64,000 nucleotides of DNA, from positions 706,774 through 770,773 of the forward strand of contig CAZJXP010000001.1 of assembly GCA_964550175.1 (NCBI GenBank), in the 5' to 3' direction. Shown here piece by piece: positions 16,489 through 40,444 of this stretch. How positions within the stretch are numbered: position 1 is the stretch's first letter; each line of letters opens with the position of its first letter. Below the pieces are notes generated by a model. That model was given only the letters and a program-made list of their open reading frames with translations. It made no database searches and was not told where the DNA came from. This DNA comes from an uncultured Methanosarcinales archaeon (GTDB lineage Archaea; Nanobdellota; Nanobdellia; Woesearchaeales; ARS49). The position numbers and the translations under genes are program-made.

Positions 16489-16617
16489 ATGAAAAAGAAG
16501 GTGACCAGCCATTCGAAGCACCCTGGCGTGAAGCGCGATCATCAAACTCTCTTCGTCTTTTGGGTGCTCGCTGCCGTGTTGCTCATCATCGTGGTTGCGC
16601 TCCTTCGCGCAGCATGA
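16489..16617 (+). CDS. small (42 aa) single-TM protein
   Basis: 'MKKKVTSHSKHPGVKRDHQTLFVFWVLAAVLLIIVVALLRAA'. Stop overlaps the next start (ATGA). Confidence 0.3.
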   Translation: MKKKVTSHSKHPGVKRDHQTLFVFWVLAAVLLIIVVALLRAA

Positions 16618-17852
16618 AGCGCACCCATTCGCCCGTTCTGACATTGATGCTTATCGTATCGATTGTCGGGTTTGTTCTTGCGGTTTCTGACCCGTCCGTA
16701 ACCGGGGCGTTCCATAAGGTGGACGTTGACAAGTTCAAGAGCATCGCCTGCACGCATCGCGGGCTTTGCCCGGAATCCTTTGCAGGAGGCTCAATTGACT
16801 GCGTCCCGAGCGCCCCAAAGAAAATCGCGGACAGATGCGAAATAGATTTGACTCCCGATGCGGGAAAATCCGCTTGCTATGATTACCCCGCGGGAACGGG
16901 CACGACCGGTCACGCGTGCTCGGGTGAAGACGTGACTTATGTTTGCGACGATACTGGCTTTTACGAGTTACGGCGTGACGCCTGCAAAACTGATGGCGTT
17001 TGCAGCGACAGCGACCATGGCATTGCCGTCACCATTAAAGGCATCGTCACGGTGAAAGAAGCCCGCGATGTGAGCAGCATATTCTCCATTGCCTCAGTTG
17101 ATAGTTCCACAGTTGATACGATTTACAAGGACCACTGCGTCGGAAGCTCAGGAAGCCCGGCGGTTACCAGCTCGATACTTCGCGAGTATTTCTGCACCGA
17201 TGACGGCGCGGGATTCGTCGATTACGACTGCTCGAAATCCGGCGGCACGTGCAAGGACCCGCCCGGCGGACCCGATGCGTGCACGCAATTGGCCGTCGGA
17301 GAAGTCCCGCCGCCCGTTCCGTGCGCGGGAATCGCAAATCCGTGCGGCATCTTCAACCCGTGCCAGCAGGGATTCACTTGCCTGAACTGCAAATGCCAGT
17401 GGGCTCCGCCGGCTTCGATATTCAATGCGCGCCTGGGTTATCCCGTTATTGATGCTGATTGCGTCTCGGGAACGACCGCGATGATGTACGGACAGGCGCG
17501 TGTCTGCACCGCGAACGGCGCGGTGAATAGCTGGGATGTTGTCACGCCCGTTCCTGCGGCGGATGATTTAGAAAATAGTTTCTTCGACGTTTTCGCGAAC
17601 TTGCCGTCGGAAGATTTGACGCTTGCAGGCGGCGCGGTGGTTCCGGCGGTCGCTCCTTCGGTGTCAACGATTCCTGCAACTACTTCAAATAACGTTGTTC
17701 AAGCAAATGTTTGCCCAGGAAACACGGAATGCCATGGGGCAACCATCGGCACGTCCATTGAAGCAGTCCAGGGCTGCAAGCGATTGTATCCGCAATCAAC
17801 GGTTCCGCTAGGTTGCAACACCCAGTGCCGGTGCGCTCCTACGCAGGGTTAA
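16614..17852 (+). CDS. secreted Cys-rich protein
   Basis: Signal peptide 'MKRTHSPVLTLMLIVSIVGFVLA'; many Cys spaced through 'CxxDGxC'-type segments. Confidence 0.55.
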   Translation: MKRTHSPVLTLMLIVSIVGFVLAVSDPSVTGAFHKVDVDKFKSIACTHRGLCPESFAGGSIDCVPSAPKKIADRCEIDLTPDAGKSACYDYPAGTGTTGHACSGEDVTYVCDDTGFYELRRDACKTDGVCSDSDHGIAVTIKGIVTVKEARDVSSIFSIASVDSSTVDTIYKDHCVGSSGSPAVTSSILREYFCTDDGAGFVDYDCSKSGGTCKDPPGGPDACTQLAVGEVPPPVPCAGIANPCGIFNPCQQGFTCLNCKCQWAPPASIFNARLGYPVIDADCVSGTTAMMYGQARVCTANGAVNSWDVVTPVPAADDLENSFFDVFANLPSEDLTLAGGAVVPAVAPSVSTIPATTSNNVVQANVCPGNTECHGATIGTSIEAVQGCKRLYPQSTVPLGCNTQCRCAPTQG

Positions 17853-23853: not shown

Positions 23854-24498
23854 CTAATATTTCAGATTTACCAGCGTATTGTTCAGGAACTTGAAAATAT
23901 CCTCCGTGACCTTGTCCTTCGGCTGGTTCGCGTCGATGTGCTTGACGATGCCGCGCGGCTCGTAGAACGCGATGACGGGTTTTGTGAGGGTTTCGTACTC
24001 ATGCATGCGTCGTGCAACAATCTCTTTCGTGGTGTCATCGTGACGCGTGAACAACGGAATCCTGCACTGGCCGCATAGCGCGGGATTGCTCAAGCCGTCC
24101 GTTAGCCCGAAGACCCGTCCGCATTGGTTGCAGCAACGCCGCGCCATAAGGCGCTCTTTCGCGATTTCTTGCGGCAGATCCAACGCGAGCACATATTGAG
24201 GCCGGCTTATGTTGTCAAGCGCTTTCGCCTGAGCTACCGTTCTCGGGAAACCGTCCCAAAGCCTGCCTTGCCGCACCGGTTTCGTCATAAGATACTCGAT
24301 CATCAGGTCGTCCGGCACAAGCTGTCCGTCGTCTTTGATGACACGTAATTTTCTCCCGTAATACGTGTCCTGCTTGACTTCCGCACGGATGAGGTCTCCG
24401 GTTGAAAGATGAACGATGCCATAATGGGCTTCGATGCGCTTGCCTTGCGTGCCCTTGCCCGCGCCTGGAATGCTAATGAGCACGACGTCTATGCTCAC
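23854..24498 (-). CDS. adk: adenylate kinase (long form with Zn lid)
   Basis: P-loop 'GAGKGTQ'; lid 'CNQCGRV...CGQC'. Confidence 0.9.
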   Translation of the reverse strand: MSIDVVLISIPGAGKGTQGKRIEAHYGIVHLSTGDLIRAEVKQDTYYGRKLRVIKDDGQLVPDDLMIEYLMTKPVRQGRLWDGFPRTVAQAKALDNISRPQYVLALDLPQEIAKERLMARRCCNQCGRVFGLTDGLSNPALCGQCRIPLFTRHDDTTKEIVARRMHEYETLTKPVIAFYEPRGIVKHIDANQPKDKVTEDIFKFLNNTLVNLKY

Positions 24499-25235
24499 CT
24501 AAATCCCTCCAACGTGGACTGCTTCTTGTCAAACTCTTCCAAGTATTTCGGCGGCTTTATCGCTTTGAACTCGTAGCCCCAATCCTCGAGCATCGCTTTC
24601 GCGTTTTCGGTGATCTTCGGGGCGGCGAGGATGCCGCGAATCTTTGAGACTCCCTTGCTGACCATCATCTTTTCTATGTAACGTCGTAATTGTGTGACGG
24701 CTGAAAGGTCGGCGCAGTAGCGCTTGCATTCGACAATCGTTAACGTTCCGTTCTTGTCCGTCCCGAACACGTCGATGAACCCGTATGCGGTTTGTTCTTC
24801 TCTTGAGACTGGCTTGAACCCGGTTTCGATCATCTCTGGATGCTCATAGAGCATGTTGCTCATGTCCTCTTCCGTGCCACTGACGACAATCGTTTGGCTG
24901 TCTTCCAGCTTTTGCGAGTTGTAGAAATGGATTCGGTCAAGCTGGATGTCCAAGAATTCCTTGAACGCGAGGTTTTTGCTTTTGAGCAACAGATGGTTGC
25001 CCTCGACCACGACGCTGTGGCTCGTCTCGGGCTTCATGTAGTTGATCGGGGCGTTCCCGGTCGGCTGGTGCACAAGAATAGCTTTATCATTTTTGATGAG
25101 AATAATCCGGTCGCCGCGGCCCAAGACGCTTTCCGCTCGTCCCGAGTAGCGGATGGAACAGGTGCAGCCGATGACGAGAGTTTCGTTGCGGGACAGCGCG
25201 TCGGTGATGAGCGTGGCATAGTCCTGCAAGTTCAT
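24495..25235 (-). CDS. nucS: mismatch endonuclease NucS/EndoMS
   Basis: C-terminal RecB-like 'GFIDVFGTDKNGTLTIVECKR...QLRRY'. 4-nt overlap with adk. Confidence 0.85.
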   Translation of the reverse strand: MNLQDYATLITDALSRNETLVIGCTCSIRYSGRAESVLGRGDRIILIKNDKAILVHQPTGNAPINYMKPETSHSVVVEGNHLLLKSKNLAFKEFLDIQLDRIHFYNSQKLEDSQTIVVSGTEEDMSNMLYEHPEMIETGFKPVSREEQTAYGFIDVFGTDKNGTLTIVECKRYCADLSAVTQLRRYIEKMMVSKGVSKIRGILAAPKITENAKAMLEDWGYEFKAIKPPKYLEEFDKKQSTLEGFR

Positions 25236-25258: not shown

Positions 25259-26305
25259 TTATTTACTTTTGGTCATGCCGGCGTACGTCAGCATTTCATC
25301 ATGGAGGACTTCGAGCTTGACATTCGCGCGCTTGAACAGCTCGCGGGTCTTCTGGGCGCCGTGGTAGCGCTTGTCAGCTACGACTCGCGCGATTCCCGCG
25401 GTGATGATGAGCTTCGCGCAGACATAGCAGGGCTCCATGCGCACATAGATTGTTCCACCGTTGATTGCGATGCCGTGCTTCGCGGCCTGTGCAAGTGCGT
25501 TCTGCTCGGCGTGCGTTGTTCGGATGCAGTGCATCCTCGGCTTCCCGTCGTCTCCGATGACTTCCTGAATCTCGTGGCCGACCTCATCGCAATGCGGGAC
25601 CCCTTTCGGTGAGCCGACGTAGCCGGTCGCGAGAAGCTGTTTGTCCTTGACGATGACCGAACCAGCACGTCCTCGGTCGCAGGTCGAACGCTTCGCGACT
25701 TCGTTCGCGATGTTCATGAAATACTCGTCCCAGCTCGGCCTCGGGAGCGCGAGCTTATGCCCCCAATCGTCGATGAACTTGTCAATTTTCTTGTGGAGCT
25801 GCTCTAACGTGCCGTCGTTCTTGATTACGATTCTTGCGAGCTTGACGGTTCGGTTGAGCTGCTGATGCGAGGGATTGTCGTGGTTTTCCTGCTGCTCGCA
25901 TCTTTTCAGGTCGTTCGCGGTCTTTATTTTCTTATCTTCCGGCTTGTTTCTTGCCTTTATTCTTTCAAACCGGACGCCGAACGGCGCATCGATGCACAAC
26001 AGGATGAAGTCTTTTCGTTTCTTTAGTTCTTCAACCTCGTGCGGGTTTCTGATGCTGCTGATGACAAAATTCTTGTCGGCGTCGATCTTCTTTATCGCGC
26101 GCTCGCCTAACACTCCCGGCCCGAACTTTTCTCTCAACTCGTTCCCGAGATTGATGAGATTCTCCCTGGTCACCTCTGTTCCCCGAACCTTCGCTTCCTC
26201 GCGGATCATGTCAGAAAGAGAAAAATGGCCGTATCCCTTGGACATCAAGTAGTCGGCGACCGTGTCCTTGCCGCTGCAATACAAGCCTGTGAGCCCGATA
26301 AGCAT
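25259..26305 (-). CDS. fusion of P-loop (d)NMP-kinase-like domain with dCMP deaminase domain
   Basis: N-terminal 'GLTGLYCSGKDT' Walker A. C-terminal 'HAEQNA...PCYVCAKLI' cytidine/dCMP deaminase zinc motif. Confidence 0.75.
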   Translation of the reverse strand: MLIGLTGLYCSGKDTVADYLMSKGYGHFSLSDMIREEAKVRGTEVTRENLINLGNELREKFGPGVLGERAIKKIDADKNFVISSIRNPHEVEELKKRKDFILLCIDAPFGVRFERIKARNKPEDKKIKTANDLKRCEQQENHDNPSHQQLNRTVKLARIVIKNDGTLEQLHKKIDKFIDDWGHKLALPRPSWDEYFMNIANEVAKRSTCDRGRAGSVIVKDKQLLATGYVGSPKGVPHCDEVGHEIQEVIGDDGKPRMHCIRTTHAEQNALAQAAKHGIAINGGTIYVRMEPCYVCAKLIITAGIARVVADKRYHGAQKTRELFKRANVKLEVLHDEMLTYAGMTKSK

Positions 26306-26472: not shown

Positions 26473-27624
26473 ATGGGGGAGTTCGTAAAAAACAAATATG
26501 GCGTGCTACCGCGCCAGGAACTTCTCGACGCATTTGATTGCGGAATGCTCAGTTCTGAAACGGATCCAAAATCATATATGCAGCCCGCGAGCGTCGACAT
26601 TCCGCTCGGCGAACGAGTCATTCGTTTAAAATCATCGTTTTTGCCCGATAATAAGATAGGGTCCGTTGAGGCAACCATTAAAAAATTGAGTCGTGATGAA
26701 TTTTCTTTAAATGAGCTTGTTCCCAAAGCGTTAGTTCGCGGACAAACCTATCTTGCCGAATTGGATATGGAAGCTAACTTACAGAAAAATTATTCTGGCA
26801 CGCTTAATCCAAAAAGCACAACCGGACGAGCGGACTGTCTCACGCGGGTTATTGTCGACGGCGTGCGCAATTATGATACGGTGTCGGAAGGAAAGGGGCG
26901 AAAATTCTGGCTTGAAATCACTCCCTTGAGCTGGGACGTGAAAGTGACCAAAGGCCTCGCACTTAATCAGTTGCGATTATCCTACGGCGAAAATCCGCTT
27001 GATGAAGGAGCATTAGTCATGGCATACATGAAGACTCCGTTGCTTATCGACCCGGAAGGACAGACCATACCCATTGAAAAAGCGTGCTTCAAGCGAGGCG
27101 GGCTGGAAATGACCGTTGACCTCGATGCGGATATTGTAGGGTATAAAGCGAAAAGAAATTCGCTCCTCGAGTTCAATCTTAGCGCGGAAAAAGGGACGCT
27201 TGCGGAACAACAAAACAAGTTCTTTGAGCCGATTGAGCGCCCGAAAGATGGCGAGCTGGTTCTTGAACCCGATACGTTCTACCTGCTCGGCACGCGTGAA
27301 AAAGCGGTGATTCCCGAGGGTCTTTGCGGCACATTGCGGGCGTACGATCCGGCATCGGCCGAAGGACGCGTTCATTACGCCGGTTTCTTCGATCCGGGCT
27401 TTTGCGCGCACGCAACATTGGAAGTCAGACTCAATCATTTACCGTTCTTGATCAAGGATGGACAGCCCATCTGCGTCTTGCAGTACGAACGCATGAAGGA
27501 CATTCCCCGCGACGAGAACGGCGAACCAAAGCTCTATGTGGGGAATTACCAGGACCAGCCGAGAGGACCTAACTTGCCGAAACAGTTCGGCGTGCGGAAA
27601 GTAGAAGCGGGAAGTTTGAGGTGA
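26473..27624 (+). CDS. dcd: dCTP deaminase-like protein, long form (dUTPase fold)
   Basis: 'LGTREKAVIPEGLCGTLRAYDPASAEGRVHYAGFFDPGF' dUTPase/dCTP-deaminase beta-barrel motif. 383 aa. Confidence 0.65.
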   Translation: MGEFVKNKYGVLPRQELLDAFDCGMLSSETDPKSYMQPASVDIPLGERVIRLKSSFLPDNKIGSVEATIKKLSRDEFSLNELVPKALVRGQTYLAELDMEANLQKNYSGTLNPKSTTGRADCLTRVIVDGVRNYDTVSEGKGRKFWLEITPLSWDVKVTKGLALNQLRLSYGENPLDEGALVMAYMKTPLLIDPEGQTIPIEKACFKRGGLEMTVDLDADIVGYKAKRNSLLEFNLSAEKGTLAEQQNKFFEPIERPKDGELVLEPDTFYLLGTREKAVIPEGLCGTLRAYDPASAEGRVHYAGFFDPGFCAHATLEVRLNHLPFLIKDGQPICVLQYERMKDIPRDENGEPKLYVGNYQDQPRGPNLPKQFGVRKVEAGSLR

Positions 27625-29336
27625 ACAGGATGACAGGAACACTAGCCCCATTAGTCAAGCACAGAGAATATTCTGAGCCTGAAAAGGTTGTGCTGAATCA
27701 TTTTTTCACTAACACGGACAAAAACATCTATTGCCCAACCGAGCATATGCCCTCTCCTGTCTGGACATTCCTTGTCGGCCAATACAGCAGAACGCCAGTT
27801 TCAATGCGCGAGCGCTTCATCGACATCTTTGACATGATGAAATCGCGCTCGGAGAAAGGAGATTGGCCAAAGAATGAAACCGTGACCGTCGAGCAGGCTG
27901 CCGACGCCATCGGCGCAGGCAAGCACGTTCCGCTCTCGTTCTTTTTTAAGACCGCGGAGAATTTCCTCGCGAAATGGGGCGTGCAGTACGGCCACAACTC
28001 GCTCAAGGACGCAGATATCGTGCGTGTCGCAATTGAAGGAGTGACGCAGACAGCGACTAACTTCATTGAGATGCCTGACCCTGAATTGGGCGCATACCAG
28101 GAAAAATCAACCAGATACATTCCATTCAGCAAGGATGACGTTGTCATTCCGCCGAGATTGGCGAACTCCCATTTTGGTCAGCGCATCAAGGCGTTGAATG
28201 ACCAGCGTATGGAAACTTATGAGCGTTGGACGCCGATATTCAGGCAATGGCTCGCGGAAAACGTGGTGCTGCGAAAGGATCACAAGACTGATGCCGCGCA
28301 CAACGGCACGCTCACCGCGCGCACGTTCGACACGATGCGATACTTCCTTCCGTTGGGGCTGACGACGTCGCTTGGCGCAACATGGCCGACCAGAGTCGCG
28401 GAAATACACCTCTCTCAGATGCTCAGCCATCCGACGGAAGAGATGCAGCTTATTGGCAAAAGCATCCTTGAAGAAGGCGTCAAGATTACGCCAGGTCTTC
28501 TACGCCATGTTAAGCCGAACGAATATTTCGGGGAAACGACGGCATCTATGAGTGAGTTGACGAGAAGCATTATAGATGCACAGCCCACCAAATATCATCG
28601 TGGCGACAGCACACTCAAGCATGCGACACTCGTCCATGCAACGCCAGGACTTGAAGACTTGCTGATTACCGGCATGCTTTATGAGTTTACGGCCAACCGT
28701 TCGTTCGCAGAACTGCAGGGCACGATTAAGGGGTTCAGCGATGCGCAGAAAGACGCCATCTTTGATGAATATCTCCGTCGACGCGGACCTCACGACCTGA
28801 TGATGCGTGGCGTAAAGCTCGGCCAGTTCACATTTGATTATTTCATTGACCACGGTGCGGCGCGGGATGTAAAACGTCAGCGCGTAGGTACGATGCTACA
28901 CCAACGTATCGGCGCGGATGAAGGGTATTCTTACCCTGAGTTCATGGAGCACGAACCTGACCTTGCTCAACTGAAAGCAGATTATGAAAAGCTGATGGAG
29001 ACCACAAGCGAACTTTACCGCGAAGTCGATCGGGATTTCCCGAATGATTCCTGCTATATTCCATCGATGGGACACCTCGGGCGCTGGCTTCATGAACATC
29101 ATGCAAGGCAAGGATCTTATGAGATCGAGCTCAGAACCCCGAGCGCCGGTCACTTTTCGTATCGACGCCTTTACCAAGAGGAATTCCGAGAAATTGAAAA
29201 AATCGCGCCGCGGTTCGCAAAATACATCCGCGCAGTGATGGGCCAAACGTCCAGCGGACGAGCGGAAGCAGAAGAGCGTGCCGCAGCGAAAGCGGCTAAG
29301 GCACTGGAAGAAGACCGAAAGAGGGCCGCACAATGA
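27621..29336 (+). CDS. hypothetical 571-aa protein in the thymidylate-synthase position of the operon (at best a very divergent ThyX-like)
   Basis: 4-nt overlaps with dcd upstream and tmk downstream. Only weak ThyX-like fragments ('YQEKSTRY'; 'TSLGATWPTRVAEIHLSQ'). The canonical RHR is absent. No ThyA 'PCH'. Confidence 0.5.
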   Translation: MNRMTGTLAPLVKHREYSEPEKVVLNHFFTNTDKNIYCPTEHMPSPVWTFLVGQYSRTPVSMRERFIDIFDMMKSRSEKGDWPKNETVTVEQAADAIGAGKHVPLSFFFKTAENFLAKWGVQYGHNSLKDADIVRVAIEGVTQTATNFIEMPDPELGAYQEKSTRYIPFSKDDVVIPPRLANSHFGQRIKALNDQRMETYERWTPIFRQWLAENVVLRKDHKTDAAHNGTLTARTFDTMRYFLPLGLTTSLGATWPTRVAEIHLSQMLSHPTEEMQLIGKSILEEGVKITPGLLRHVKPNEYFGETTASMSELTRSIIDAQPTKYHRGDSTLKHATLVHATPGLEDLLITGMLYEFTANRSFAELQGTIKGFSDAQKDAIFDEYLRRRGPHDLMMRGVKLGQFTFDYFIDHGAARDVKRQRVGTMLHQRIGADEGYSYPEFMEHEPDLAQLKADYEKLMETTSELYREVDRDFPNDSCYIPSMGHLGRWLHEHHARQGSYEIELRTPSAGHFSYRRLYQEEFREIEKIAPRFAKYIRAVMGQTSSGRAEAEERAAAKAAKALEEDRKRAAQ

Positions 29337-29965
29337 GCGACGGACTGTTTGTTGTATTAGAAGGCATTGACGGCTGCGGCAAGGGCACGCAGATGAAACG
29401 TTTGGCGAACAAACTATTCGACATGAACAAGCGTCATCATGTCGTCATGACGCGAGAACCAGGACGAAGCGATTACGGTATCGAAATCAGGAAAATATTG
29501 GCGGAAACAAACGATCCTTACCAACAAGGCGTTCGGCTTGCGCAACTATTTGTTGATGACCGGCGCAGGCATGTTGAAGGAATTATTTTGCCAACACTCG
29601 CCTACGGCGGAATCGCTTTGTCCGACCGTTATAAACATTCCACGTTGACATTTCAACACGCGCAAGGCATTCCCATGGATGAACTGTTGGCAATGCATGA
29701 AGGGCTCCCCGTCCCTGACCTCACCGTGATACTTGATGTTCCTTCTGAGGTTGGAATGGCGCGAATCGGAAAGGATACGAGCCGCGAAAAGCCAGAGTCA
29801 TTTGAGAAATTGGAATTTCAGGAAAAGCTTCGTTGGTTTTATCGCGGATTGTGTCTTACGCTTAAAGATGAGACCATTAAAATTATTGACGCAAATCGCA
29901 AACCAGAAGAGATTGAAATTGATGTCTTGAATGCAGTTATGCCTTATTTAGAAAAGGTAAAATAA
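29333..29965 (+). CDS. tmk: thymidylate kinase
   Basis: 'VVLEGIDGCGKGTQ' P-loop, DRY-like 'SDRY', lid region. Confidence 0.85.
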   Translation: MSDGLFVVLEGIDGCGKGTQMKRLANKLFDMNKRHHVVMTREPGRSDYGIEIRKILAETNDPYQQGVRLAQLFVDDRRRHVEGIILPTLAYGGIALSDRYKHSTLTFQHAQGIPMDELLAMHEGLPVPDLTVILDVPSEVGMARIGKDTSREKPESFEKLEFQEKLRWFYRGLCLTLKDETIKIIDANRKPEEIEIDVLNAVMPYLEKVK

Positions 29966-30911: not shown

Positions 30912-32771
30912 TTACTTTTTCTCGTACACAAACGCCCCATCCCAGTCCTTGGCTGGCGGATGCTTCAAGTAGAGTTCGCAGCGTTCGATGAACAACGCGC
31001 AGGACGGGTCGTTCGGTCGGATCTTTGCAGTTTCTTTGAATCCCTTGAGCGCGTCGTGGAACTTTGCCTTGAAATACAGCTCCAACGCCTTTTCGAACGA
31101 CGTGACGAACGCTTGGTCCTGGTCGACGCATAAATGATAGAGTAAAACAGGAACCTTTTTTCCCTTCACTTTCACGGCGTCGAGCTTGCGGCATAAATAT
31201 TTGCCTTTGATGTGCTCGTACGTGCTTTCCGAGATGAGGATGCTGACGCCGTACTCTTTGGTGAGCCCTTCCATGCGCGAGGCAAGGTTGACCGTGTCGC
31301 CGATGGCCGTATAGTCAAACCGTTCTTCCGAGCCCATGTTACCGACTACGGCCGGGCCGGTGTGGATGCCGATGCCGATGTTCAACGACGGGACGTTGCG
31401 CTGCTTCCAATTGGCTTGCAATTCGCGAAGCGCTTTGATTTGCTCGACGGCTGTGTCACAGGCCTTCACCGCGTGGGCATCATCAAGTAAGGGGGCGTTC
31501 CACAACGCCATGATGGCGTCCCCGATGAACTTGTCAACAGTTCCTTGGTGCTTGAGCACGATGCGCGTCATCGTGGTGAGATATTCATTCAAGAGATGGA
31601 CCAATTCTTCCGGCGAGAGCTTTTCGCTGATGCTGGTGAAGTCGCGTATGTCCGAGAACATGACCGTGAGGATTCTTTTTTCGCCACCGAGCGTCAACTG
31701 CTGGTTTTTTGAAAGTATTTCATCCAACAGTTCTTTGCTCACATATTTCGAGAACGCGTCGCGCAAATACGCCCCTTTCGTTTTTTCCTCTGTGTACGCC
31801 ACGCTCACGCCTGCGCCGGTGAAGACGGCGAACGCCAACGGGGCGAAAAACAGGTCGATAAGGAGGTTGAACTGGTTGAACGAGATGATGGCGACAATTG
31901 CGTAAACGACAAGCAACCCGATTGCCAACGGGATGGCGTAATAATACTTCAGGCGCGCGATGAGAAACATGCCAGCAAGCGCGGCGAGGATGACGCCGAG
32001 CATTACAATCAGTTTGTCCGGCGCGCGCAAGAAATCATTGTTGATGATGTTTTGGAGTATGTTTGCGTGAATCTCGACGCCGGGCATAGCTTTTCCGTCC
32101 GACGTCGGCACAAAATAGTCGTCGTGCAAGTTCGGGGCCGTCGCGCCGATCAGGACAATCTTGTTCGCGAAACTGAGATTTTTTGCGAGCACGTCGTTGA
32201 CGCTGACGGTTTTGAACGAATGAGGGGCATCCGCGAAGTTGATGAGCAACGTTTCTTTTTCGGTCGGAGTGGCGTAACCAGCCTGTTCCGCGATGGCGAA
32301 TGAGAACGGCTTCATATCATTCGCGATGCTCGGGTTTACTCGGCGCGTTATCCCGTCAGCGTCCCCGAGAAGGTTCACATAGCCCGTGATTGACGGGAAT
32401 ATCGGCAAATACGTCACTCCTTGCTGGATTTCGGACGCTAACACGACGTTATCCATCGACTGTAACGTCGTATTCAAGAGAACATCATTCGGGCTCGGCT
32501 CAAAAAAAGAAACATCAATGCCGATTACTTTCGCGTCATTCAGTTTCTCGAGAAGATTCGCGTGGACGTCGCGGCTCCAAGGCCAGTGGCCGATTGAGTT
32601 GATGCTCGCGTCATCGATTGCGACGATGACGATGCTGTCAAGAACCGCGTTACCGCCGTACAGCTTGTCCGTGAGCGTGCCCCGCACGTGGCTGAACGAA
32701 TCAACCTGCACGAGCAGCAGCGCAAGCGCGAGCAGCCCGAGGAAAATCCCTAGCTTGCCAACTTTAGCCAT
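30912..32771 (-). CDS. CHASE2 sensor – class III adenylyl cyclase – TPR protein
   Basis: Signal/TM + periplasmic CHASE2 + 3 TM; cyclase motifs 'FSDIRDFT', 'DKFIGDAIMALW', 'IGIHTGPAVVGNMG', 'NLASRME'; C-terminal TPR-like helices. Confidence 0.85.
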   Translation of the reverse strand: MAKVGKLGIFLGLLALALLLVQVDSFSHVRGTLTDKLYGGNAVLDSIVIVAIDDASINSIGHWPWSRDVHANLLEKLNDAKVIGIDVSFFEPSPNDVLLNTTLQSMDNVVLASEIQQGVTYLPIFPSITGYVNLLGDADGITRRVNPSIANDMKPFSFAIAEQAGYATPTEKETLLINFADAPHSFKTVSVNDVLAKNLSFANKIVLIGATAPNLHDDYFVPTSDGKAMPGVEIHANILQNIINNDFLRAPDKLIVMLGVILAALAGMFLIARLKYYYAIPLAIGLLVVYAIVAIISFNQFNLLIDLFFAPLAFAVFTGAGVSVAYTEEKTKGAYLRDAFSKYVSKELLDEILSKNQQLTLGGEKRILTVMFSDIRDFTSISEKLSPEELVHLLNEYLTTMTRIVLKHQGTVDKFIGDAIMALWNAPLLDDAHAVKACDTAVEQIKALRELQANWKQRNVPSLNIGIGIHTGPAVVGNMGSEERFDYTAIGDTVNLASRMEGLTKEYGVSILISESTYEHIKGKYLCRKLDAVKVKGKKVPVLLYHLCVDQDQAFVTSFEKALELYFKAKFHDALKGFKETAKIRPNDPSCALFIERCELYLKHPPAKDWDGAFVYEKK

Positions 32772-35357: not shown

Positions 35358-35550
35358 ACAGGACCTGAATTATTATGAGTATAAATAGCTTCCTTCCCGC
35401 GTAAACTGGCGCAATAAAGCCTCGTAAAGGGTTCTAGAAAGCTTCCTGGAAAGTGTGTTTATAAAGTAATCCCGCGTAAATGAGAGTTAGGCGATGCAAG
35501 CATCGTCAATCAAGCTAAAACAATACGGGCGCAAGCCCGGAGGCAACACA

Positions 35551-36726
35551 ATGGATTTCAAGAAATGGACCACGATGTTCGTGTTGTCGCTGTTCATCGT
35601 CAGCGTCGTTCCCGCGGTATTTGCGGATGAAGGCTCTGATGATGCTACTGACGACACGGATGCAGAAGATATAGCGGAAGATACCGCGGATGATGCTGCG
35701 GATGCCGCAGAAGACGCCGCAGATGACGAAGCCGATACGGCAAAAGACCGTATGAAGGCACGCGCAGACCTGTTGAAGGACCGCGCGGACAGATTGAAGG
35801 ATGCGCGAGAAAAGATAGAAGCTTCGCGAGAAAAGGCGCGAGAGACTCGAGGAAAGATCCTGGAAGCTCGACGCGAGTTCAAGGACGCGCGCGAGCGATT
35901 GCACAGCCGAGACGCGACCAAGGAAGATAAGCAGGAATTCTTGCTTTCATCCGCGGACAAGATCTTGGAATTGCTTAACAATATCCGCGATCGAGTGGAC
36001 GCATCGGACCTTGAAGACAAGGACGAGAAGCTCGCGAGCATCGATGAAGCGATCGTTGTGGTCACGGAAGCGCAGGCGACCGTTGAAGCATTAGATATGG
36101 AGACTGCGACCTCGGAAGAGATCAAGGCAGCCCGTGACGAAGTCAAGGACGCCTGGGACAAGGCGCGCAAGGTCTTGAAGACCAGCGCAGGCCATGTTGT
36201 CGCGAAGCGTGTCGGCTTGATTGTCGAACGTATGGACCACTTGGATGACAAGCTGGACAAAATCATCGCGCACTTGAGCGAGAAGGGATATGATGTCAGC
36301 GTTGCAGAATCTCTGACGGCGGACTTCGAGGCAAAGCTCGAATCAGCCGAAGCAAACTGGGAAACCGCAAAGACAGCATATGATGCTGGCGATGCAAAGG
36401 CAGGTCACGACGCACTTGTTTTGGCGCACGCCGACCTCAAGGAAGCCCACAGGCTGTTGAAGGAAATCGTCAAGAGCATCCGAAGCACGACCAAGACGGG
36501 CGCGCTTGAGGACGCGGAATCGGCGACCGAAGACGAAACCGAAGACGAAACTTCCGAAGACGTCGATGATGACGCAGCCGATGACTCGGATGAAGCCGAA
36601 GAAGCGGATGATGATGCGGATGATGAATCCGAAGACACCGTCACTGCGGATGTCAGCACAACGACTGAGACCACTATCATTGACACAACGGCAACGACCG
36701 ATGTCGATGTTGGCGTGACAGTGTAA
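35551..36726 (+). CDS. secreted acidic coiled-coil protein
   Basis: Signal peptide; D/E/A low-complexity termini; heptad-rich middle. An alternative start at 35494 is possible. Confidence 0.5.
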   Translation: MDFKKWTTMFVLSLFIVSVVPAVFADEGSDDATDDTDAEDIAEDTADDAADAAEDAADDEADTAKDRMKARADLLKDRADRLKDAREKIEASREKARETRGKILEARREFKDARERLHSRDATKEDKQEFLLSSADKILELLNNIRDRVDASDLEDKDEKLASIDEAIVVVTEAQATVEALDMETATSEEIKAARDEVKDAWDKARKVLKTSAGHVVAKRVGLIVERMDHLDDKLDKIIAHLSEKGYDVSVAESLTADFEAKLESAEANWETAKTAYDAGDAKAGHDALVLAHADLKEAHRLLKEIVKSIRSTTKTGALEDAESATEDETEDETSEDVDDDAADDSDEAEEADDDADDESEDTVTADVSTTTETTIIDTTATTDVDVGVTV

Positions 36727-37152: not shown

Positions 37153-38280
37153 GTGCGCTTAGCAAATCCATTTAAGGAACCACTTGTTTCTTCAGGTATG
37201 ATTGTCATTGACGGAGCGCAAGGGGAAGGCGGCGGGCAGATGCTTCGGACTGCGCTAGCACTATCTGCGGTTTCTCAAGAGCCGTTTCGAATGACCAATA
37301 TACGTTCTGGTCGAGATGTTCCAGGACTGAAGCCGCAGCATCTTGCCGCGGTTAAGACGGTGCAGAAGCTATGCAACGCGGTCGTGGAAGGAGATGCGAT
37401 TGGGTCGACTGAACTTACGTTCTTTCCGAAACCCATCAAAGGCGGCGCGATTGAGATTGATGTCGGAACGGCCGGAAGCGTCACTTTAGTTCTGCACGCT
37501 GCGGTGTTACCTTCATTGTTCGCGAAACAAAGCACGCGATTGCTGATTACTGGCGGGACGGATGTCGAGCATGCGCTGTCCATTGATTATTTTTCTGAAG
37601 TGTTTTTGCCGCAAATGAGGGGGTGGTGCGAGAAAATCGAAGTTAAACTGATTAAACGAGGGTATTATCCTGCCGGCGGCGGACAGGTTGAACTGTTTGT
37701 CAAGCCGAAGATCAAACGAAGCGAGTTTGAGACATTTGACTCGTTTGTTACGGCGTTGCGGGCGGTTGTTCCTCGAATGAATCTTTCTGAGCAAGGACAT
37801 CTGATGTTGATAAAAGGTGTTTCGCACGCGTCGCACGAGCTCGAGCGCGACAAAGTGGCTGAACGCCAGGCAAACGCGGCTTTAGCGATGCTGATGAAAC
37901 GCGGCGATGTCAAGATTATTTCTGAATACGTGAAAACAAGTTGTTCTGGCTCGGGGTTGACACTCTGGGCAATTTATTCTATTTTGCAGGATGACATTGA
38001 GTTTTCACGGCCGATACGACTTGGTTCTTGTGTCTTGAGTAAAGACCCGGAAGAAACGGGGAAGAACGCGGCACTGCGACTGATTGACGCGATGGATTCG
38101 TTATCTCCGGTTGACGAGCATCTGGGCGATATGCTGGTGCCGTTTGTCGCGCTTGCTACGGGGAGCTATGCAGTCGCGAACGTGACGGAGCATACGAGAA
38201 CGAATGTTTCTGTCGTGAACAGATTCTGTCCTGACGTTGTTATTGACGGAAACAAAATCAAGAAATTGCTGCAAGTTTGA
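37153..38280 (+). CDS. rtcA: RNA 3'-terminal phosphate cyclase
   Basis: 'IDGAQGEGGGQMLRTALALS' signature. The true start may be the ATG at 37198. Confidence 0.9.
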   Translation: MRLANPFKEPLVSSGMIVIDGAQGEGGGQMLRTALALSAVSQEPFRMTNIRSGRDVPGLKPQHLAAVKTVQKLCNAVVEGDAIGSTELTFFPKPIKGGAIEIDVGTAGSVTLVLHAAVLPSLFAKQSTRLLITGGTDVEHALSIDYFSEVFLPQMRGWCEKIEVKLIKRGYYPAGGGQVELFVKPKIKRSEFETFDSFVTALRAVVPRMNLSEQGHLMLIKGVSHASHELERDKVAERQANAALAMLMKRGDVKIISEYVKTSCSGSGLTLWAIYSILQDDIEFSRPIRLGSCVLSKDPEETGKNAALRLIDAMDSLSPVDEHLGDMLVPFVALATGSYAVANVTEHTRTNVSVVNRFCPDVVIDGNKIKKLLQV

Positions 38281-40444
38281 GCGACGTCTTCAAATCAAGA
38301 ATCTCGTAGCCCAAGGTGCGCTTGCTGTCGCCGTCACGCAACGACGCGTGGATGTGCTGCAGCTTTTGAAGTATGATTTTGGTCGTTGACAAATCATGGC
38401 TCGCCAACGCGTCATGCGCCTGGTTGAGCAGGTGCGGGATCTCTGCCGGTCGGGCAGCGGCGATGCCGGCTTCTTCATGACCTGAAATTTTTTCCGGCGG
38501 CTCGTACACGTGGTCTTCTATTTCTTCCACATGCGCCGGAGCTTGTGTTCTTGGCTGCGGCGGGGTGAATCGGTGCGGAACCGGGACTTTCTCGGATTTT
38601 TTAGCGGGGTGGTATTGTCGCAGTTCCTTCAATCGGTCTTCCTTGTGATGGATTGAGCTGGTTACGGAAATGACTTTGCGCGAATCCTTCTCCAACGTCC
38701 ATTCAAGTTCGTTTCGTAAGGCTTCAAGGCGCTTGATGTCGACTTTCGTTTCCTTAACCTTGGCGGCCTTTGCCTTCAACGCGTCGGCTTGTTTCCTCAA
38801 TTCTTCCGCTTTGGCCAACGCTTTCGTGATGAGCTGCTCTTTCTTCGCGAGCGAGGATTCGTATTGCTTCAATGCTGATTCTCTCTGCTTGAACTGCTCT
38901 TCGACCTTGCCGTGCGCATGAGCGACTCGTTCGAGCTCTCGGACGCGTTCAATGACGCTCTGCTCTTCCTTTGCAAGCTGCTTCTTGTCTTTTTCGAACT
39001 CTTTCGCGGCTTTCACGAGTTCGTCTTCCATTTCGCTCAAGGCGTTGATGTCGCCTTGAACGAGTTTGTTCAGCCCGGATTTCTCGTGCTTGACCTGGTC
39101 TTGGATTGCGGAAACGGTATCGCGTTCCGATTTCCATTGTGACATTGATTCTTGGAATTCTGCTTTGCGGCCATCGATTTCGCTTTGCAGCTCTTCCTTG
39201 AGCTGCGTGAGCTCCTCTTTCGCGTTTTCGATTGACGCACGGGCATTGGAGAGATTCAATTCGTCTTCCGCAAACTCCTTCTCTCGCGCAGCCATTTCTT
39301 TCTGATGCTTCTCGAGCTGGCGATCCAACGCGGTCAAACCATCTTCTTTCTGCGCGAGCGCCTTTTCTTTCTGGTCGAGAATATCTCGTCGCTTTTCAAT
39401 TTCGGATTGGAACTTGTTCATCTGCTGCGAGCGCTTCTGCAATTCCTTGTTCGCGCTTTCGGCGGCGGACTGGTGGTTCGCAAGATCTTTCTGGGCAAGC
39501 TTGATCTGCTGCTTTAAATCATCGAGACGGGATTGGGCTGCCTGCTCCTGCTGAGCGGTTTTTTGTCGGAAGACCTTGTTGAATTCCTTCTCTTTTTCAG
39601 CGTAGAGCGATTCTAGCTGCCTGATCTGGGCGCAGAGCTCGCTGTACTTCTTTCCGGCTTCCTGTTCTCGCTTTTCCTTCTTCTGCTGGAAGACCTTATT
39701 GTATTCCTTATCTTTTTCGTCGTAGAGCTTCTCTACCTGTCGGATTTGGGCGCAGAGTTCGCCGTATTCCTTTGCCGCGTTGTCGCGTTTGGACTGGGTC
39801 GCTTGCGCCGCGCGCTCCAATGATGCCTGCTTCGAGCTTAAGCTTGATTCTTGCGCGGAGATTTCCTTGGCGCGTTTTTGCAATTGGGCGTTGAGCGAAA
39901 GCAGCCCGGCGTCTTTGTCGTTCAGGACCTTTTCTTTGATATCGAGGAGCTGTTCTCGCTTTTCAAGATGATTCTGCAATCCTCGTAATTCGTGGTATTT
40001 TTTTGCGATCGCGCGCTCGCTGCTGCTCAATTCAGTTCTATTTTCGACCAAATCATCGCTGAGCGCCTTCAGTTCCGACTTCACCAATTTTACCTGTGCT
40101 TCCGCGTTTCTCTTTGCGTTTTCGAGCCCCTCGATTTCCTTCAGCACTTCGTGCTTCCGGTTTTCGGCGCGGTTGACCTTCGCCATCGTTTCCCTGATGA
40201 GGGACTCCTTGTCAGAGAATGCGCGCGCTTTTTGAACGAGAGTTGCTTCGAGATCGGCTAATGCGTGCTCTTTCTTCTTTATTTCTTGCGACTTCTTGTC
40301 AAAGACCTTTTCGAGGTCGTGCAATTGGGAGGATTTCTTTCTGAGAATGCGTTCGTAGTCCGCGGTTGACGGGGCGGGAGGAGGCGGGAGCTCGCTCTTA
40401 AACATCGAAAACAGGGTCCGCGCCCCTTTCGCGGTCGTTGCCAT
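38258..40444 (-). CDS. long coiled-coil protein with internal repeats
   Basis: 728 aa, heptad-rich, Q/E/K-rich. No enzymatic motif. Confidence 0.55.
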   Translation of the reverse strand: MATTAKGARTLFSMFKSELPPPPAPSTADYERILRKKSSQLHDLEKVFDKKSQEIKKKEHALADLEATLVQKARAFSDKESLIRETMAKVNRAENRKHEVLKEIEGLENAKRNAEAQVKLVKSELKALSDDLVENRTELSSSERAIAKKYHELRGLQNHLEKREQLLDIKEKVLNDKDAGLLSLNAQLQKRAKEISAQESSLSSKQASLERAAQATQSKRDNAAKEYGELCAQIRQVEKLYDEKDKEYNKVFQQKKEKREQEAGKKYSELCAQIRQLESLYAEKEKEFNKVFRQKTAQQEQAAQSRLDDLKQQIKLAQKDLANHQSAAESANKELQKRSQQMNKFQSEIEKRRDILDQKEKALAQKEDGLTALDRQLEKHQKEMAAREKEFAEDELNLSNARASIENAKEELTQLKEELQSEIDGRKAEFQESMSQWKSERDTVSAIQDQVKHEKSGLNKLVQGDINALSEMEDELVKAAKEFEKDKKQLAKEEQSVIERVRELERVAHAHGKVEEQFKQRESALKQYESSLAKKEQLITKALAKAEELRKQADALKAKAAKVKETKVDIKRLEALRNELEWTLEKDSRKVISVTSSIHHKEDRLKELRQYHPAKKSEKVPVPHRFTPPQPRTQAPAHVEEIEDHVYEPPEKISGHEEAGIAAARPAEIPHLLNQAHDALASHDLSTTKIILQKLQHIHASLRDGDSKRTLGYEILDLKTSLKLAAIS
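39570..39790. repeat. intragenic tandem duplication, about 120 bp ×2
   Basis: '...gaagaccttgttgaattccttctctttttcagcgtagagcg...gggcgcagagctcgc' repeated with about 85% identity. Encodes 'EYGELCAQIRQ(V/L)E(K/S)LY'. Confidence 0.6.

Follow-up and report, generated by a model that had tools for sequence, protein, structure and literature searches.

Known ThyX enzymes and the archaeal locus

Canonical flavin-dependent thymidylate synthases (ThyX/FDTS), among them T. maritima TM0449 (PDB entry 1o26), M. tuberculosis Rv2754c (2af6/3gwc), and PBCV-1 A674R (2cfa/4fzb), are single-domain proteins of about 220 to 250 aa that carry the signature RHR-x7-S-x-R-Y. They form homotetramers with four active sites, each built from three subunits (PMC6514825, PMC3498832). 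Subunit A supplies the RHR motif, which serves the FAD phosphates, the flavin, and dUMP, together with R199 (T. maritima R174), which serves dUMP; subunit B supplies S71 and R190 (T. maritima R165) for FAD; and subunit C supplies S105-R107-Y108 (T. maritima S88-R90-Y91) for dUMP and the lid (PMC6514825, PMC3498832). Within RHR, the middle residue contacts the FAD phosphate/ribityl (PMC6514825). Catalytic roles have been assigned to S88, R90, Y91, and R174, the last of which activates dUMP (PMC8316439).

A domain-duplicated ThyX was noted in Chloroflexi and called uncharacterized in 2009 (Valas & Bourne 2009, PMC3224940). Within the searchable literature, a single sentence in that paper is the only mention of a tandem, fused, or pseudo-tetrameric ThyX that we found, and it comes without residue-level or oligomer analysis. 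No activity data for a two-domain ThyX were found in the same literature. The ThyX of Chlamydia trachomatis, at about 529 aa, was reportedly shown to be active by Griffin et al. in 2005; if it is of the two-domain type, the long form would already be validated biochemically. A further relative, PolB of Streptomyces cacaoi (4p5a/4p5b), has a single domain, belongs to polyoxin biosynthesis, and is, by PDB title, a UMP/dUMP methylase.

We analyzed a locus within a 64-kb stretch of DNA from a Woesearchaeote (the whole stretch is referred to here as the window). A sequence-only reading had placed an unrecognized protein between dcd and tmk genes and proposed it as a candidate for a highly divergent or new type of thymidylate-forming or dU-modifying enzyme. 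Profile searches bear out the neighbors that it named. The upstream gene, dcd (26473..27624, + strand, 383 aa), encodes a two-domain member of the dCTP-deaminase family (PF06559 plus PF22569/PF22769; NF005734 was matched at 243.7 bits, under its cutoff of 283). The downstream gene, tmk (29333..29965, + strand), encodes thymidylate kinase (PF02223 and TIGR00041, both over cutoff, the latter at 130.7 bits versus 83). A divergent gene (25259..26305, − strand, 348 aa) encodes a P-loop kinase-like domain fused to a dCMP/cytidine deaminase (PF13238 plus PF00383) and probably provides an additional route to dUMP. An anti-phage role for this fusion finds no support, as NF041025 was matched at 127 bits against a cutoff of 400 and the conserved neighbors are housekeeping genes.

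The gene between dcd and tmk, here designated thyX, can be read as the longest open reading frame from GTG at 27621 (571 codons; 27621..29336, + strand), as the sequence-only reading had it, or from ATG at 27630 (568 aa; 27630..29336, + strand). An identical database protein has 568 aa, a Shine-Dalgarno-like GAGGTGA (27618..27624, + strand, read from the sequence) lies 5 nt upstream of the ATG and overlaps the TGA stop of dcd (27622-27624), and the alignment of relatives begins at residue 2 counted from ATG 27630. On these grounds, a 5-nt gap between dcd and thyX is more likely than an overlap. Of the 4-nt overlaps claimed for both junctions, the one between the thyX stop and the tmk start (ATGA, 29333-29336) stands, whereas the one between dcd and thyX (GTGA, 27621-27624) depends on the longest-frame start. 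Residue numbers below follow the 568-aa protein.

A long-form ThyX with two fused domains

The protein is not unrecognized: Pfam Thy1 (PF02511) matched it in two stretches at 47.7 bits (E = 2e-12; gathering cutoff, 24.8 bits), and no other Pfam family was matched at an E of ≤1. The N-terminal half alone scored 33.5 bits, and the C-terminal half alone scored 18.1 bits (E = 0.0025), which is under the gathering cutoff. At the same threshold (E ≤ 1), no NCBIfam model, the canonical ThyX models included, matched the protein; the long form thus falls outside the canonical NCBIfam models. A phmmer search of PDB sequences with the full protein retrieved no chain, and a profile of the C-terminal half retrieved no ThyX from PDB sequences, only chance-level matches to MBD4 (E of about 0.8). 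In the absence of a PDB sequence match, homology of the C-terminal half was taken from the Pfam score, from hhalign, in which it aligns end to end with T. maritima ThyX, and from a separate structure prediction. The AlphaFold2 (AF2) model of this half alone has a pLDDT of 90, and the top 50 Foldseek matches in the PDB were all of the ThyX family (TM of about 0.7).

Structure prediction and fold search together assign the ThyX fold to both halves, and neither half takes an unrelated fold. The two halves show no significant similarity to each other in sequence (blastp E = 2.6; hhalign probability, 0.6%), so the duplication is argued from fold predictions and profile matches. No sequence similarity to ThyA was found with Pfam or, across the window, with tblastn using E. 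coli ThyA. Public databases name the protein "FAD-dependent thymidylate synthase" or "thymidylate synthase ThyX," and a search at an E of ≤1e-3 gave a family of 1,849 cluster representatives. The protein is a known long form of ThyX, consisting of two fused ThyX domains in a 568-aa chain, and not a new kind of enzyme; the profile score over the gathering cutoff and the ThyX fold of both halves rule out a new class, as do the catalytic residues described below.

Beyond its two domains, the protein differs from canonical ThyX in an additional N-domain insertion of about 50 to 60 residues (roughly aa 60 to 115), which precedes the G-H motif, and in a charged C-terminal helical tail rich in A, E, K, and R (29250..29333, + strand). 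The tail lies outside the ThyX fold, and AF2 models a helix at residues 542 to 567 with a lower pLDDT of 70 to 82.

Active-site residues divided between the domains

The N-terminal domain (about aa 15 to 300; 27672..28529, + strand) is supported by its Thy1 match, by a HMMER alignment with the ThyX of M. tuberculosis (3gwc/2af6), and by conservation among 38 diverse members of the family. Residues were mapped through the HMMER alignment in preference to a global hhalign of the N-terminal half with T. maritima ThyX, which misaligned the β-strand region; the T. maritima reference sequence was confirmed to be identical to 1kq4. H122 and S124 correspond to M. tuberculosis H69 and S71, and the equivalent of T. 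maritima H53 is kept. Likewise, E158, S160, R162, and Y163 correspond to T. maritima E86, S88, R90, and Y91, R237 to R147, and R255 to R165. Seven of these residues (H122, E158, S160, R162, Y163, R237, and R255) are invariant in the 38 members. The "EKSTRY" that had been flagged as a faint ThyX-like trace reflects real homology: QEKSTRY (28098..28118, + strand) is the conserved S-x-R-Y part of the ThyX signature and the predicted dUMP-binding and catalytic loop. The RHR position of this domain is replaced (E147...P151-E152), with E in place of T. maritima R78 in 35/38 members, and the position of R174 is occupied by M264 here and by M or L across the 38 members.

The C-terminal domain (about aa 318 to 540; 28581..29249, + strand) shows the reverse pattern. 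R412 corresponds to T. maritima R74, R416-Q417-R418 to R78-H79-R80, R502 (29133..29135, + strand) to R174, and H508 to H178; all except Q417 are invariant in the 38 members. The S-x-R-Y loop is lost from this domain, the positions of S88, R90, Y91, and H53 are unconserved among the 38 members, and an invariant Y476 takes the position of R147. The earlier statement that the protein lacks RHR thus holds for the N-domain, but the C-domain carries RQR (28875..28883, + strand) at this position by alignment and conservation. Among 120 relatives, both arginines are invariant, with H between them in 101, Q in 17, and N in 2; RQR in place of RHR is a feature of the present clade.

Neither domain alone contains the contiguous RHR-x7-S(-x-R-Y) signature, which is whole only when both are combined. 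Because the signature is divided between two fused domains, no stretch of the protein resembles canonical ThyX. Taken together, the two domains provide equivalents of T. maritima R78, R80, S88, R90, Y91, R165, and R174, all invariant in the 38 members. QEKSTRY was found in almost all of 85 related loci, and in nearly all of them it is followed about 250 to 290 aa later by D-x-G-A-x-R-D-x-x-R-H-R; this split motif holds even in relatives of only 26 to 29% identity.

Compared with the subunit roles of the M. tuberculosis enzyme, this division suggests how the fused protein may assemble. As judged from the aligned residues, the C-domain keeps only residues of the A role, and the N-domain keeps only those of the B and C roles. 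An ancestral thyX would have been duplicated in tandem and then fused, after which each copy would have lost the portion of the composite active site that the other retained. A homodimer, with two N-domains and two C-domains, could then mimic the 222 tetramer of ThyX. Two of its sites would be complete, with one C-domain and the pair of N-domains contributing to each, and the other two would be dead. We lean toward this arrangement, an asymmetric pseudo-tetramer that is obligate and has just two active sites, and it would be expected to bind about one FAD per polypeptide, with two composite sites per dimer in place of the four per canonical tetramer. The Chloroflexi protein embodies the same architectural idea (PMC3224940), a likeness drawn from its description.

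The function, in turn, appears ordinary and was rightly placed by genomic context; the split two-domain architecture is of structural interest. Very probably, the gene encodes a ThyX/FDTS of the fused two-domain type that fills the dUMP-to-dTMP step, and ThyX family membership upholds the earlier reasoning that a gene between dcd and tmk should supply this step. For the conversion of dUMP to dTMP, the enzyme would presumably use FAD, NAD(P)H, and 5,10-methylene-tetrahydrofolate. Its dUMP may come from the upstream dCTP-deaminase-family enzyme (via dUTP or dUMP), from the divergent dCMP-deaminase fusion, or from both, and its dTMP would pass to the kinase encoded by the overlapping tmk. In annotation terms, an apparent gap in the pathway is thereby closed by a complete local dCTP/dCMP-to-dUMP-to-dTMP-to-dTDP module, with no need for a new enzyme class. 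This is a modest advance in which no new system is discovered. The fused protein nevertheless offers a natural experiment, in which a four-site homotetramer is predicted to have become a two-site dimer through complementary loss that cleanly separates the residues holding FAD (the A role) from those of the dUMP loop (the B and C roles). Fused proteins of this kind are widespread in ultrasmall DPANN archaea and Patescibacteria, and also in Fibrobacterota, and they appear to be without a published structure. Because ThyX is a drug target, a structure of the two-domain form would inform the subunit-role assignments.

Relatives and alternative readings

Relatives occur in many genomes of DPANN archaea, Patescibacteria, and Fibrobacterota, and both here (dcd and tmk) and among them, thyX neighbors genes of thymidylate and one-carbon folate metabolism. 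In a census of 85 related loci, neighbors included tmk (n = 24), SHMT (n = 20), a deaminase (n = 17), DHFR (n = 15), and a FolC-like gene (n = 14); the deaminase count comes from tblastn with the kinase-deaminase fusion as the query, for which many matches cover only part of the length. Some relatives lie in thyX-DHFR-SHMT operons next to a FolC-like gene, and a Gracilibacteria copy adjoins DHFR. At one related locus, the two-domain thyX, in the arrangement thyX-tmk-cmk, adjoins the same kinase-deaminase fusion. Within the window itself, no SHMT, DHFR, or FolC-like gene was found. As the sequence-only reading had reported, there is also no other thyA or thyX in the window; tblastn detected no ThyA-like or second ThyX-like sequence across the 64 kb, and the E. 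coli ThyA query gave no significant match there.

These neighborhoods and the conserved residues bear on how the protein might otherwise be read. An enzyme of the ThyX fold could act on another substrate, for example as a C5-methylase or hydroxymethylase of UMP or dCMP that, like PolB, yields a modified pyrimidine. We regard this as very improbable: every dUMP-contacting residue of canonical ThyX is invariant, and the window holds no other thymidylate synthase. Moreover, unlike PolB, the present protein belongs to a dcd-thyX-tmk operon, with relatives placed by SHMT and DHFR; taken over the window and across phyla, the neighbors are tmk, dcd, dCMP deaminase, SHMT, and DHFR, and not antibiotic or DNA modification clusters. 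DPANN archaea have reduced, host-dependent genomes in which salvage from the host is common, and the protein could accordingly be a degenerate, inactive relic or a regulatory paralogue, with thymidylate supplied by a canonical thyA or thyX elsewhere or by host salvage. The replacement of the H79 equivalent by Q and the lack of essential residues in either domain alone would fit such decay. However, the losses in the two domains are exactly complementary and the catalytic residues are invariant in relatives down to 26% identity, a pattern that indicates a functional composite site kept under purifying selection. With thyX translationally coupled to tmk and the family conserved in many reduced genomes, a relic or regulatory paralogue seems very unlikely. 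A new class of enzyme that forms thymidylate but has no relation to ThyA or ThyX would draw on nothing but the pathway position and the missing contiguous RHR-x7-S signature, and we give it next to no credence given the Thy1 score over the gathering cutoff, the ThyX fold in both halves, and the conserved ThyX catalytic residues.

Within the preferred reading of a two-domain ThyX, members of the RQR clade might have altered chemistry, such as a methylene donor other than CH2-THF (free formaldehyde or an archaeal pterin) or a different pyrimidine nucleotide, although we think this very improbable. As a separate observation, no folate genes lie near thyX in the 64-kb window of the present Woesearchaeote. 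Free formaldehyde is activated in vitro by T. maritima ThyX (PMC8316439).

Locus and family assignment of the thyX product

The thyX open reading frame (27621..29336, + strand; 571 codons in its longest form) lies between dcd (26473..27624, +), which encodes a 383-aa member of the two-domain dCTP deaminase family with DCD_N, DCD_C, and DCD domains, and a clear thymidylate kinase gene, tmk (+), immediately 3'. A fusion of a P-loop-kinase-like protein and a dCMP deaminase (25259..26305, −; 348 aa) is divergent from dcd-thyX-tmk. Domain matches confirmed this gene order as described in a sequence-only reading of the window, which also held that the three genes are chained by 4-nt overlaps. The thyX/tmk junction, read from the sequence, is indeed a genuine ATGA overlap, but the dcd/thyX overlap is less certain. 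A GTG start at 27621 would overlap the dcd stop (TGA, 27622-27624) by 4 nt; the identical database protein (P0001), however, is 568 aa long, corresponding to a start at ATG 27630. GAGGTGA precedes this ATG, and residue 2 counted from it is where relatives begin to align. Residue numbers below follow the 568-aa form (+3 for 571-aa numbering).

The same reading called the thyX product unrecognised and a candidate new type of thymidylate-forming enzyme. The product matches Pfam Thy1 (PF02511, "thymidylate synthase complementing protein") in two stretches at 47.7 bits, against a gathering cutoff of 24.8 bits, and is almost certainly a ThyX-family protein of the two-domain type. The pathway reasoning, that the gene fills the thymidylate synthesis step between dcd and tmk, was sound, and the "faint ThyX-like traces" reflect real homology; the protein very probably makes dTMP. 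Its predicted function is ordinary, and the fused two-domain form is already named ThyX in databases.

A search of 5.8 billion proteins retrieved 197 relatives of ∼545 to 615 aa from Woesearchaeota, Nanoarchaeia, and Gracilibacteria. Among the 120 of these that were listed, all (120/120) carry PF02511; most names given by the sources are "FAD-dependent thymidylate synthase" or "thymidylate synthase ThyX," with a few "hypothetical protein." Scanned exhaustively with HMMER, 1.84 billion cluster representatives yielded 1,849 matches at E ≤ 1e-3 (144 at E ≤ 1e-30), most of them 450 to 700 aa long with one single aligned stretch covering both halves. A genome scan extended two-domain thyX to Peribacteria, SR1, many other Patescibacteria, Fibrobacterota, Armatimonadota, and Omnitrophota. 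Searches with the product matched no NCBIfam model and, by phmmer, no PDB chain; the two-domain family is thus remote from canonical ThyX in sequence. The Chlamydia trachomatis ThyX, of ∼529 aa, is reportedly active in vitro. Beyond a 2009 remark on domain-duplicated ThyX in Chloroflexi (Valas and Bourne, PMC3224940), no other discussion of two-domain ThyX was found in the literature searched.

Two ThyX folds with divided active-site residues

An AlphaFold2 model of the full product, built from a 38-sequence alignment, reached a pLDDT of 92.5 and a pTM of 0.87, and the order of its secondary-structure elements repeats between the halves. Against Thy1, the N-half alone scored 33.5 bits and the C-half alone 18.1 bits (E = 0.0025). 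Because the C-half was the weaker case by sequence, it was modeled separately (pLDDT 90). Foldseek, the check that had been suggested, returned ThyX proteins as the best 50 PDB matches for both models, with a TM score of ∼0.7 for the C-half whether normalized to query or target. Compared directly, the halves share no detectable sequence similarity. On these fold matches, the modeled product is a tandem of two ThyX folds followed by a charged C-terminal helix. The dcd product likewise has the two-domain DCD_N + DCD_C form, scoring under the NCBIfam equivalog cutoff (243.7 versus 283); two adjacent operon genes thus encode enzymes that are ordinarily homo-oligomers, here in internally duplicated form.

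Residues were mapped by HMMER alignment to Mycobacterium tuberculosis (Mtb) ThyX and by hhalign to Thermotoga maritima (Tm) ThyX, whose reference sequence was confirmed identical to PDB entry 1kq4, with conservation counted in 38 sequences. Invariant in the N-domain are H122 and S124 (Mtb H69 and S71), E158, S160, R162, and Y163 (Tm E86, S88, R90, and Y91), R237 (Tm R147), and R255 (Tm R165). At the RHR position this domain reads E147...P151-E152, with glutamate in place of the first arginine in 35/38, and it has M or L at Tm R174. Invariant in the C-domain are R412, R416, and R418 (Tm R74, R78, and R80), R502 (Tm R174), and H508 (Tm H178). Its equivalents of H53, S88, R90, and Y91 are unconserved, an invariant Y476 replaces R147, and the R165 position is arginine in just 21/38. 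The earlier statement that the protein lacks RHR is therefore only partly correct: the C-domain carries RQR at this position. Among the 120 relatives listed, the middle residue is H in 101 and N in 2; the other 17, to which the window protein and its nearest relatives belong, have Q. The split pattern (QEKSTRY, then 250 to 290 residues on D-x-G-A-x-R-D-x-x-R-H-R) is found at nearly all of 85 related loci, including relatives with as little as 26% identity.

In Mtb ThyX, three subunits build each active site: subunit A contributes RHR (FAD phosphates and ribityl, flavin, and dUMP) and R199 (Tm R174); B contributes S71 and R190 (Tm R165) to FAD; and C contributes R87, S105, and R107 to dUMP, the Q103 backbone to the flavin ring, and Y108 as a lid (PMC6514825). 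PBCV-1 ThyX is split the same way, with one monomer providing Q75 and R182 and a second providing S88 and Q89 (PMC3498832). A role for R174 in dUMP activation, and roles for S88, R90, and Y91, are also described (PMC8316439). The residues kept in each domain match these subunit roles exactly. We infer that the C-domain may serve only the A role and the N-domain only the B and C roles. If a single two-fold axis related the two C-domains within a 222 arrangement, each C-domain would meet both N-domains, acting in the B and C roles, giving two complete sites, while the two sites requiring an N-domain in the A role would be dead. Such a division might account for the strict retention of R165 in the N-domain and its looser conservation in the C-domain. 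Judged from residue roles, we lean modestly toward this two-site dimer. Of modest interest are the way the two domains apparently share out the active site, the predicted two-site dimer, and the RQR variant.

Gene context among relatives

Relatives occur in thyX-DHFR-SHMT operons (some with 4-nt overlaps) that have a FolC-like gene beside them; a Gracilibacteria copy adjoins DHFR, and one locus (L006) reads thyX-tmk-cmk with the same kinase-deaminase fusion 5' as in the window. In a tblastn census of the 85 loci (range of ∼5 kb), tmk was found at 24, SHMT at 20, a deaminase at 17, DHFR at 15, a FolC-like gene at 14, and two-domain DCD at 3. The deaminase query was the window fusion, and many of those matches cover only part of its length. 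These neighbors form the setting expected for a folate-dependent thymidylate synthase. In the 64-kb window itself, no SHMT, DHFR, or FolC-like sequence was detected, nor any ThyA or second ThyX, in agreement with the earlier reading on the latter two.

Context varies by clade (L001 and L006-L009 versus L002-L004, L014-L019, L038, and L048). Loci of the RQR clade, the window among them, are associated with tmk, and some also with dcd or cmk; those of the archaeal RHR clade are associated with DHFR-SHMT-FolC; and distant Patescibacteria copies have RHR with tmk and a deaminase. One bacterial locus (L023) carries RQR independently of that clade.

In Gracilibacteria, Peribacteria, and SR1 relatives (L005, L020, L029, L033, L036, L037, L041, L042, L053, L055, L057, and L067), UGA encodes the conserved glycine of the C-domain motif D-F-G-A-Y-R-D ("DF*AYRD"). 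This codon is a stop under table 11 and W in database translations using code 4; these loci are a clean example of UGA as glycine (genetic code 25). The reassignment also accounts for the failure of the L005 gene to yield the query protein on translation.

Other genes in the window

The kinase-deaminase fusion shares its two-part architecture with NF041025, the "anti-phage dCTP deaminase" model, but at 127 bits it falls far under the cutoff of 400 and appears to be a housekeeping protein related to the defense deaminases. Genes for adenylate kinase (23854-24498, −) and the mismatch endonuclease NucS/EndoMS (24495-25235, −), which overlap by 4 nt, adjoin the dcd/thyX/tmk module, forming a small nucleotide-metabolism and DNA-repair island. 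Three large ORFs (38258-40444, −, 728 aa; 16560-17852, +, 430 aa; and 35494-36726, +, 410 aa) had no Pfam match at E ≤ 1e-3. The other scanned genes are typical archaeal housekeeping genes. A 619-aa fusion of a CHASE2 sensor domain to an adenylate/guanylate cyclase catalytic domain (30912-32771, −) is a cyclic-nucleotide signaling protein in an apparent DPANN (Woesearchaeota) genome.
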